A DNA stretch of 64,000 nucleotides from Escherichia phage vB_EQ1, in sequence record PQ516281. One strand, 5' to 3'. Shown here piece by piece: positions 35,036 through 35,233 of the stretch. Made by a program: the position numbers and the translations under genes. The notes below the pieces were generated by a model that saw only the letters and a program-made list of their open reading frames with translations, was not told the origin of the DNA and ran no database searches. How positions within the stretch are numbered: position 1 is the stretch's first letter; the number at the start of each line of letters is the position of its first letter.

Positions 35036-35233
35036 ATGTTTAAACTTCCATCGTTAATCAACGCTATTAAAGGCAATAAAAAGAAAACTGCTATCGCTGC
35101 AATAGTTGTAGGTGGCATTATTTCATGGAACTTCGGGATTGCACCATTGTTAGTTGCCCATGGTATTATAGTTCCTTCTGTTCCATTGGATACTGTAGTT
35201 GATTTGGCCTTTGCTATTATAGGGCTTGTTTAA
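35036..35233 (+). CDS. Small hydrophobic membrane protein (65 aa), plus-strand, convergent with gene 61
   Basis: Strong RBS aaggag 8 nt before ATG; two predicted TM segments; only plus-strand ORF inside the minus-strand early block. Confidence 0.45.
   Translation: MFKLPSLINAIKGNKKKTAIAAIVVGGIISWNFGIAPLLVAHGIIVPSVPLDTVVDLAFAIIGLV

Follow-up and report, generated by a model that had tools for sequence, protein, structure and literature searches.

A conserved gene for a predicted small membrane protein, probably expressed late, faces primase gene 61 in T-even phages

Introduction

Does a short open reading frame (ORF) that runs alone against a long block of early phage genes encode a protein and, if so, when would that protein be made and what could it do? 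The question is raised by Escherichia phage vB_EQ1 (sequence record PQ516281), of which we have analysed a stretch of 64,000 nucleotides (nt), hereafter the window. The ORF occupies positions 35036..35233 of the plus strand, between dCTPase gene 56 and primase gene 61, starts with ATG and codes for 65 amino acids (aa; MFKLPSLINAIKGNKKKTAIAAIVVGGIISWNFGIAPLLVAHGIIVPSVPLDTVVDLAFAIIGLV). The initial annotation, made from the DNA letters alone, had taken it for a membrane-peptide gene, and had proposed that it is either a small membrane effector or, through its antisense arrangement, a regulator of genes 56 and 61.

The analysis reported here shows that the ORF is a real gene and codes for a protein, and that it represents in Mosigvirus a family found only in the Tevenvirinae. 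As to its product, we favour with reasonable confidence a late-expressed, 65-residue bitopic inner-membrane protein, which would serve as a non-essential accessory late envelope factor.

Results

Conservation and coding potential

The features that carry the argument are the following:

35036..35233, plus strand: coding sequence of the 65-aa protein (PHROG 2024; ortholog of RB69ORF029w, HX01 D299_gp163, bas46_0126 and bas37_0144)
35025..35030, plus strand: Shine-Dalgarno (SD) sequence AAGGAG, ending 5 nt and centred ~8 nt upstream of the ATG
35007..35014, plus strand: candidate late promoter box, variant AATAAATA with A at -13, 21 nt before the ATG
35230..35233, both strands: TTAA palindrome in which the stop codons of the ORF (plus) and of primase gene 61 (minus) overlap by 4 nt

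The ORF, its SD and its convergent overlap with the gene 61 stop codon had all been described in the initial annotation and were found as stated. The window belongs to a Mosigvirus genome, that of an RB69/HX01-like T4-type phage; positions 34400-36300 share 99.8% identity with Escherichia phage MRostami-2023e and ~98% with many members of that genus.

The protein matched the PHROG 2024 profile from end to end (residues 1-65 against profile positions 1-65 of 65, E=1.9e-27), and members of five other genera matched the same profile with E values of 1e-24 to 1e-31. A tblastn search with the window protein returned 692 phage records, at least 80% of the protein being covered in 685 of them, with identities of ~95-100% in Mosigvirus, ~54% in Tequatrovirus including T4, and 45-49% in Gaprivervirus. 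The ORF is intact at the same locus in ~700 T-even genomes. Searching next to gene 61 gave more members, in Dhakavirus JS10, Gelderlandvirus STP4-a and Jiaodavirus 5N, and the Gelderlandvirus member used as query matched 297 further records, adding ~180 from phages of Klebsiella, Salmonella, Citrobacter and Raoultella. Synteny is constant: in six genera (Mosigvirus, Tequatrovirus, Gaprivervirus, Dhakavirus, Gelderlandvirus and Jiaodavirus) the ORF lies directly 3' of gene 61 on the opposite strand, and an (A/G)GGAGG-type SD stands at an equal distance from the ATG in every relative examined. Conservation in relatives, one of the checks that had been proposed for this ORF, was thus confirmed.

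The family is restricted to T4-like phages. A profile search of 1.84 billion representative proteins returned only two clusters, both of this family (one of them Gaprivervirus-like) and nothing more distant, and a word-indexed search of 5.8 billion proteins gave only seven matches, all to close Mosigvirus relatives. No paralogue was found in the window with the family hidden Markov model (HMM). Outside the Tevenvirinae, genes 61 and 56 abut and no family member lies between them (Pseudotevenvirus RB16 and leE, Krischvirus G5211, Klebsiella phi1_146054 and Acinetobacter Ac42), so the gene looks to have been inserted between 61 and 56 in a T-even-like ancestor. Winklervirus CHI14, though a member of the Tevenvirinae, has no family member at this locus. 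A fold search of BFVD recovered family members (one labelled "Holin" by its depositors, A0A482MZV5), a 63-aa Karamvirus protein (E=0.16) and otherwise non-significant single helices; fold matches of a 65-residue helical peptide were not counted as evidence.

We have then examined the substitutions. The ratio of nonsynonymous to synonymous rates (dN/dS, Nei-Gojobori) was 0.11 for the window against T4, 0.24 for the window against CJ20, 0.34 for T4 against CJ20 and 0.10 within Mosigvirus. Synonymous sites are near saturation (proportion of synonymous differences, pS, 0.6-0.75), with the frame kept at 45-55% protein identity. Between the window and T4, the differences at the first, second and third codon positions numbered 31, 12 and 41, second positions changing three to four times less than third ones. 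Together, the dN/dS values and the codon-position pattern are the signature of a translated hydrophobic protein. Insertions and deletions within the frame comprise a loss of three codons in phages a20 and P0004 and a gain of one codon in T4. Frameshifts were seen in only two of the 692 records: T4_ev240 (LR597657.1, a genome assembly), in which one A is lost from the A run encoding KGNKK (~1410-1608 of the retrieved stretch), and ERS-1 (PP337211.1, ~2490-2700 of the retrieved stretch), a record flagged UNVERIFIED_ORG. Either sequencing errors or genuine inactivation may explain them, and inactivation would fit the dispensability described below.

The same data bear on the possibility that the ORF is spurious, that is, a frame in an AT-rich spacer called repeatedly owing to genome similarity. 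Its absence from the curated T4 and JS10 reference annotations would suit an artefact, as would the lack of any match to the protein in Pfam, NCBIfam and PADLOC scans and in a PDB profile search. Against an artefact stand the frame held open at such divergence with dN/dS below 0.35, a motif found in six genera, the conserved SD and start codon, and the doubtful quality of both frameshifted records. The substitution pattern effectively refutes a spurious ORF, for which we see a negligible probability.

Annotation of the gene in related phages

The family is already catalogued as hypothetical proteins. In RB69 the gene is annotated as RB69ORF029w (NP_861719.1), hypothetical, with the same length, strand and 4-nt overlap (family HMM E=9e-31), and "hypothetical protein" is also its label in HX01 (D299_gp163), in the BASEL Mosigvirus Bas46 / ChristianSchoenbein (bas46_0126) and in hundreds of other records, the Mosigvirus copies being 95-100% identical.

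The T4 and JS10 reference records omit it. In the T4 reference (NC_000866.4), positions 17626-17934 are unannotated, leaving a 309-nt gap between dam and 61; the ortholog is found at 17738..17938 (+), with 66 codons, the SD AAAGGAGG and the TTAA overlap with gene 61, and a Pyrodigal/pharokka-annotated T4 record does call it. In the JS10 reference (NC_012741.1), the unannotated ortholog lies in a 291-nt gap between 61 and 56, on the minus strand between 2529 and 2823 of the retrieved stretch. In both T4 and JS10 the copy comes with a strong SD and a NATAAATA box, and its stop codon overlaps that of gene 61 in TTAA. The initial annotation, which had compared the interval with that of T4, is to be corrected here, as T4 also carries the ORF; neither this ortholog nor the late-promoter box had figured in it. 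The literature that we searched on T4 ribosome profiling, unannotated T4 ORFs and late promoters near gene 61 does not mention the gene. A T4 differential RNA sequencing preprint gives 150 transcription start sites, 22 of them antisense (10.1101/2024.04.04.588121).

A candidate late-promoter box upstream of the ORF

The ORF is the sole plus-strand gene of a minus-strand early block of more than 45 kb. From ~11 kb to 60 kb, all ORFs of at least 90 aa (counted unless nested in a longer opposite-strand ORF) are on the minus strand, which bears out the earlier description of a lone plus-strand gene, and the plus-strand late genes (tail fibres 34-38 and t) are confined to the first 11 kb of the window. 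The 88-nt spacer between the ATG codons of gene 56 and the ORF contains the candidate late-promoter box AATAAATA.

Among 50 listed T4 late promoter sites, 32 have the perfect TATAAATA, nine have A at -13, which is the commonest natural variant, and most others are single deviations (PMC2988020). Such variants serve as promoters in vitro, and RNA 5' ends mapped in vivo have been linked to them (Geiduschek and Kassavetis, PMC2988020). The other boxes of the two types in the window are the following:

552, 5632 and 10432, plus strand: perfect TATAAATA, before tail-fibre genes at 590 and 5664 and before t at 10460
34412..34419, minus strand: perfect TATAAATA, 31 nt before the soc ATG (34380)
6152 and 8377, plus strand: AATAAATA, within tail-fibre genes
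6065..6072, minus strand: AATAAATA, antisense to the ORF at 5664..6329

All four perfect copies end 20-31 nt before the ATG of a late gene, and the soc box, ~600 nt from the ORF, served as a positive control for reading such boxes as late promoters. The motif WATAAATA occurs eight times on the two strands of the window, compared with 17 ± 4.5 in shuffled sequences, a scarcity consistent with avoidance of stray late promoters. The box at 35007 is the only plus-strand WATAAATA between 10.5 kb and 64 kb.

The boxes found in the relatives, with their distances to the ATG, are:

Mosigvirus: AATAAATA, 21 nt
T4: GATAAATA, 21 nt
another Tequatrovirus lineage: AATAAATA, 22 nt
Gaprivervirus: CATAAATA, 16 nt
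Dhakavirus: AATAAATA, 21 nt
Jiaodavirus: GATAAATA and CATAAATA, 33 and 12 nt, respectively
Gelderlandvirus: ATTAAATA only, 14 nt

Thus, NATAAATA is kept in five of the six genera, while the first base of the box varies and the surrounding spacer cannot be aligned. Such conservation amid diverging flanks makes the ORF most likely a late gene. We infer a weak-to-moderate late promoter at 35007-35014, with a predicted transcript start near 35020-35022 and a leader of ~15 nt, and the ORF is probably expressed late in infection. Its layout fits that of T4-type late genes (gp55/gp33/gp45-dependent), in which an 8-bp box with at most one deviation from TATAAATA precedes the start by about one helical turn and the leader is short. 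The non-consensus first base may indicate selection for low output. By these sequence signals, the ORF appears to be the second late gene in this early region after soc, in the opposite direction.

Convergent gene arrangement and possible antisense control

A terminator scan and sliding-window folding over several hundred nt disclosed neither an intrinsic terminator nor an unusually stable RNA structure on either strand. Transcripts of the plus strand must hence extend into gene 61 as antisense RNA, and those of gene 61 must continue through the ORF into gene 56. Such an arrangement is what antisense regulation would exploit: late transcription into gene 61, opposing the read-through from 61 to 56, would lower primase and early-gene expression at late times by RNA pairing or polymerase collision, and the peptide would be secondary. 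The convergent genes with their 4-nt overlap and the necessarily overlapping transcripts speak for this, and T4 is known to have several sites where first one strand and at another time the other serves as template (PMC2988020).

Selection, however, acts on the amino acids (dN/dS 0.1-0.34), with residues invariant in six genera. The TTAA overlap is found in T4, Bas37, JS10, STP4-a and RB69, but it is lost in CJ20 (Gaprivervirus, 118-nt gap) and 5N (Jiaodavirus, 18-nt gap), both of which retain the protein, and transposon insertion in the Bas37 ortholog carries no fitness cost. We consider it unlikely that antisense control is what is selected here, and found nothing specific in favour of this second proposal of the initial annotation, which is not needed to explain the conservation of the gene and cannot explain the constraint on its protein. 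The two roles are not mutually exclusive, and convergent late transcription into gene 61 is possible as a side effect of expressing the protein.

A weak sigma-70-like match (9/12; TTGATT, 17-nt spacer, CATAAT) lies at 35061..35033 on the minus strand, inside the 5' end of the ORF and directed towards gene 56. The region has four such matches compared with 7.1 expected by chance, and this one probably has no significance; were it genuine, it would work against the late promoter. A type I toxin-antitoxin pair would combine a small hydrophobic peptide, toxic at high levels, with a dedicated cis-antisense RNA that has its own promoter and terminator; on the antisense side this weak match was seen, and no terminator on either strand.

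Predicted topology of the protein

The protein can be divided into three parts:

35036..35086, plus strand: residues 1-17, basic (net +5), with a short amphipathic helix at 3-11, predicted cytoplasmic
35087..35158, plus strand: residues 18-41, predicted transmembrane helix with the family-invariant W31-N32 (followed by F/Y/L at 33) and P37
35159..35230, plus strand: residues 42-65, conserved tail with H42-G43, P47, L51-D52 and V55-D56, predicted periplasmic or interfacial

The two hydrophobic stretches (residues 18-41 and 44-65) and the Lys-rich N-terminus that the initial annotation had pointed out are evident, the latter having five Lys among residues 3-17 and no acidic residue. Across the six genera, W31, N32, P37, A41, G43, P47, an acidic residue at 52 and V54/V55 are invariant or nearly so. 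The core motif of the family, W-N-[FYL]-x3-P-x-A-x2-[HYQN]-G-x2-[LVI]-P ... [LMF]-[DE]-x-V, is present in the window protein as W31 N32 F33, P37, A41 H42 G43, P47, L51 D52 and V54.

AlphaFold2 (AF2), run with an alignment of eight sequences, gave a model with a mean predicted local distance difference test score (pLDDT) of 80 and a predicted template modelling score of 0.55. It has three helices (3-11, 15-41 and 51-62), the last two of which are separated by an extended segment at 42-50. The central helix (15-41) spans 27 residues with pLDDT 83-86, and in the tail this extended segment, which contains Pro, leads into an amphipathic helix of 12 residues. In all six lineages the N-terminal flank carries four to six Lys/Arg (net +1 to +5), and the C-terminal flank has a net charge of -2 to 0. 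The best 19-residue Kyte-Doolittle window coincides with the transmembrane segment in five relatives (1.65-2.6); in the window protein, the top-scoring one is 44-62 (1.95). The corresponding stretch in members from Gelderlandvirus and Jiaodavirus contains three prolines and a D/E-K pair, which, together with its short length, makes it unlikely to span the bilayer and favours one transmembrane helix. The favoured topology is therefore a single transmembrane helix, N-in/C-out, with an amphipathic tail predicted to be interfacial or periplasmic. The earlier suggestion of a small membrane protein is in keeping with the purifying selection, the six-genus conservation, the positive-inside charge and the modelled 27-residue helix.

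The alignment also admits a reading in which residues 1-41 are a long Sec signal peptide, the cleavage of which after P-x-A-x-(A/S/T) would free HGIIVPSVPLDTVVDLAFAIIGLV, a hydrophobic peptide of 24 residues, in the periplasm as the active species. Cleaved Sec signal peptides have an n-h-c organization, with an h-region of 7-15 residues and an A-x-A site. The protein has a basic n-region, a hydrophobic core and a helix-breaking Pro at -5, and small residues occupy -1 and -3 before [H/Y/Q]-G in T4 (AIA|HG), TH41 (ALA|HG), STP4-a (ALA|YG) and JS10 (AAS|QG). The hydrophobic core, on the other hand, is ~20-24 residues long, as is typical of a signal anchor rather than a cleaved peptide; the invariant W-N-(F/Y/L) and Pro would sit within a disposable leader, where they would not be expected; and the window protein has L at -3 (LVA), while CJ20 (ALT) and 5N (AST) have T at -1. 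Cleavage seems quite unlikely to us.

Beyond residue 17 the protein contains no Lys or Arg. Trypsin would yield one usable peptide (LPSLINAIK) and a 48-residue hydrophobic fragment, so standard trypsin shotgun proteomics would nearly miss the protein.

Dispensability of the Bas37 ortholog and the lysis hypothesis

The ortholog in Bas37, a T4 relative, is bas37_0144 (91945..92145 (+), 201 nt), which overlaps primase bas37_0145 by 4 nt (HIDEN-SEQ, 10.1101/2025.11.20.689424). In the tables of that study, transposons were recovered at 20 of its 24 TA sites and the gene was classed as "Non-essential", with dCTPase essential and primase intermediate among its neighbours (10.1101/2025.11.20.689424). 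Such tolerance of insertions indicates that the gene is dispensable for plaque growth on laboratory E. coli. The ORF does not appear in the T4 transposon table, since that table is based on the reference annotation, and the targets in the CRISPRi-ART paper were annotated coding sequences only.

These data are also relevant to a role as a holin, pinholin-like or viroporin-like lysis protein, in which the two hydrophobic segments would form a two-transmembrane hairpin with Asp52 and Asp56 lining an oligomeric pore. The small size, the two hydrophobic stretches and the probably late expression would suit a holin, and it is the ortholog A0A482MZV5, from a T4-like phage, that bears the depositors' label "Holin", with no experiment cited. 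Holins have at least one transmembrane domain and, at the C-terminus, a hydrophilic and highly charged domain. The protein has a predicted transmembrane helix but lacks such a C-terminal domain: the chain ends in …AFAIIGLV with no basic residue, and its charge is at the N-terminus. No endolysin or spanin gene is adjacent, the locus being between 56 and 61, and the holin gene t (219 aa, 10460..11119) is found elsewhere in the window, behind a consensus late promoter of its own. In distant members the C-terminal stretch, with its three prolines and D/E-K pair, is too short to cross the membrane, and the C-terminal helix of the AF2 model has only 12 residues. Finally, the Bas37 ortholog is non-essential, whereas T4 gene e was essential in the same transposon study (10.1101/2025.11.20.689424). 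A pore-forming lysis protein is hence very unlikely.

We have rejected the holin identity because two defining features are lacking: the protein has no charged C-terminal domain, and the gene is neither part of a lysis cassette nor essential.

Neighbouring genes and variation of the locus

The genes flanking the ORF in the window are:

35230..36252, minus strand: gene 61, DNA primase, convergent neighbour (phrog_47 E=1e-101; annotated as primase in relatives)
34426..34947, minus strand: gene 56, dCTPase, divergent neighbour (phrog_173 E=1.6e-45; same annotation in relatives)
34144..34380, minus strand: soc, beyond gene 56 (Pfam Soc)

Unlike in T4, neither dam nor segF/69 is found between soc, gene 56 and the ORF (the initial annotation had remarked on the lack of oriA, gene 69 and dam): the window has no dam between 56 and the ORF and no homing endonuclease segF between soc and 56. 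In Jiaodavirus 5N, homing endonucleases flank the primase gene on both sides, and Bas37 has an additional minus-strand ORF, bas37_0143, near the 56-61 junction. The junction is a hot spot of gene gain and loss, judging from these arrangements, and the small ORF nonetheless stays attached to the 3' end of gene 61.

Genes for membrane and periplasm factors abound near the ORF. At a distance of 2.4-3.4 kb, small early genes directed at the envelope are clustered on the minus strand (37630..37923, 37987..38235 and 38297..38665); their products are spackle, an 82-aa protein with two hydrophobic segments ("immunity to superinfection" in HX01) and a protein of 122 aa that begins like a lipoprotein (…LTGC). 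The HX01 RefSeq record (NC_018855.1) also has several very short plus-strand genes in this early block, of 25-37 aa and labelled "hypothetical proteins" (3540..3617, 2198..2311 and 2318..2395 (+) of the retrieved stretch), one of which overlaps the start of gene 56. The BASEL relative has no such calls, and they look over-predicted.

Discussion

The evidence suggests the following course of events for the accessory envelope factor proposed here. The ORF would be transcribed clockwise, against the early genes, from the variant gp55-type late promoter AATAAATA at 35007-35014, and translated from the strong SD on its ~15-nt leader. The product would insert into the inner membrane as a bitopic protein, with the Lys-rich N-terminus in the cytoplasm, one transmembrane helix (~15-41) bearing W-N-(F/Y/L)...P, and the conserved ~24-residue tail (HG..P...LD..VD...A..GL) on the periplasmic face. 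The end of the helix and the tail may bind another envelope protein, and a late envelope event, be it lysis timing, lysis inhibition or the superinfection response, might be tuned in this way.

Several points weigh against this proposal. A role in lysis or envelope modulation is a best guess, made by analogy. To our knowledge, no locus between dam and 61 was mapped by the classical r-mutant screens. The consensus T at -13 is absent from the box in all lineages and Gelderlandvirus has ATTAAATA only, so the promoter is possibly weak, or absent in some genera. Residues 44-62 of the window protein are as hydrophobic as a transmembrane segment by the Kyte-Doolittle score given above, and the protein might instead fold as a two-helix hairpin that keeps its two termini in the cytoplasm. 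Moreover, two conditional-screen tables of the Bas37 study list no phenotype for bas37_0144 (log2 fold changes of 0.33 and 0.20, q=1.0; 10.1101/2025.11.20.689424).

A bolder version would make the protein a still-unrecognised late component of the T-even envelope machinery, a partner of T, RI, the spanins or the host Sec, Tol or envelope-stress systems that affects lysis timing or superinfection on natural hosts only, and its convergent promoter might in addition help to shut down primase and early transcription. We give this an outside chance.

For the window itself, the gene is an ordinary, already annotated hypothetical one, with no laboratory phenotype in a close relative. Its wider interest lies in T4, among the most intensively annotated of viruses, the reference of which omits a gene conserved in six Tevenvirinae genera, where it is under purifying selection and probably late. 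Studies built on the T4 or JS10 reference annotations, such as the T4 table of the transposon study, are blind to it, and adding it to the T4 map would be a useful correction. As a small late membrane protein, its product is a reasonable candidate for fine-tuning the envelope or lysis.

Comparison with known systems

Class II holins and pinholins (S21 68), the T4 holin T and the antiholin RI are small, late, membrane-inserted phage proteins, as the ORF product is predicted to be. They differ from the ORF product, which has no charged cytoplasmic C-terminus, is encoded outside a lysis cassette and has a non-essential ortholog; it shows no sequence or profile similarity to the holin families in Pfam and PHROGs.

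MgrB (47 aa) and SafA (65 aa) are small bitopic E. coli inner-membrane regulators that act on membrane partners. By analogy, the ORF product would resemble them in size, in its N-in/C-out single pass and in a short conserved periplasmic tail presumed to contact a partner. It has no sequence relationship to them (no Pfam or NCBIfam match) and is phage-encoded and probably late.

The classical T4 late gene in the early region, soc, is also small, located in the early block and preceded by a late box and a short leader. It has the perfect TATAAATA, follows the direction of the early genes and encodes a soluble capsid decoration protein, whereas the ORF has the A(-13) variant box, runs in the opposite direction and encodes a predicted membrane protein. 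The closest comparison is with the PHROG 2024 / RB69ORF029w family, with which the ORF agrees in position, strand and overlap with gene 61; nothing material differs, and the ORF is that gene.

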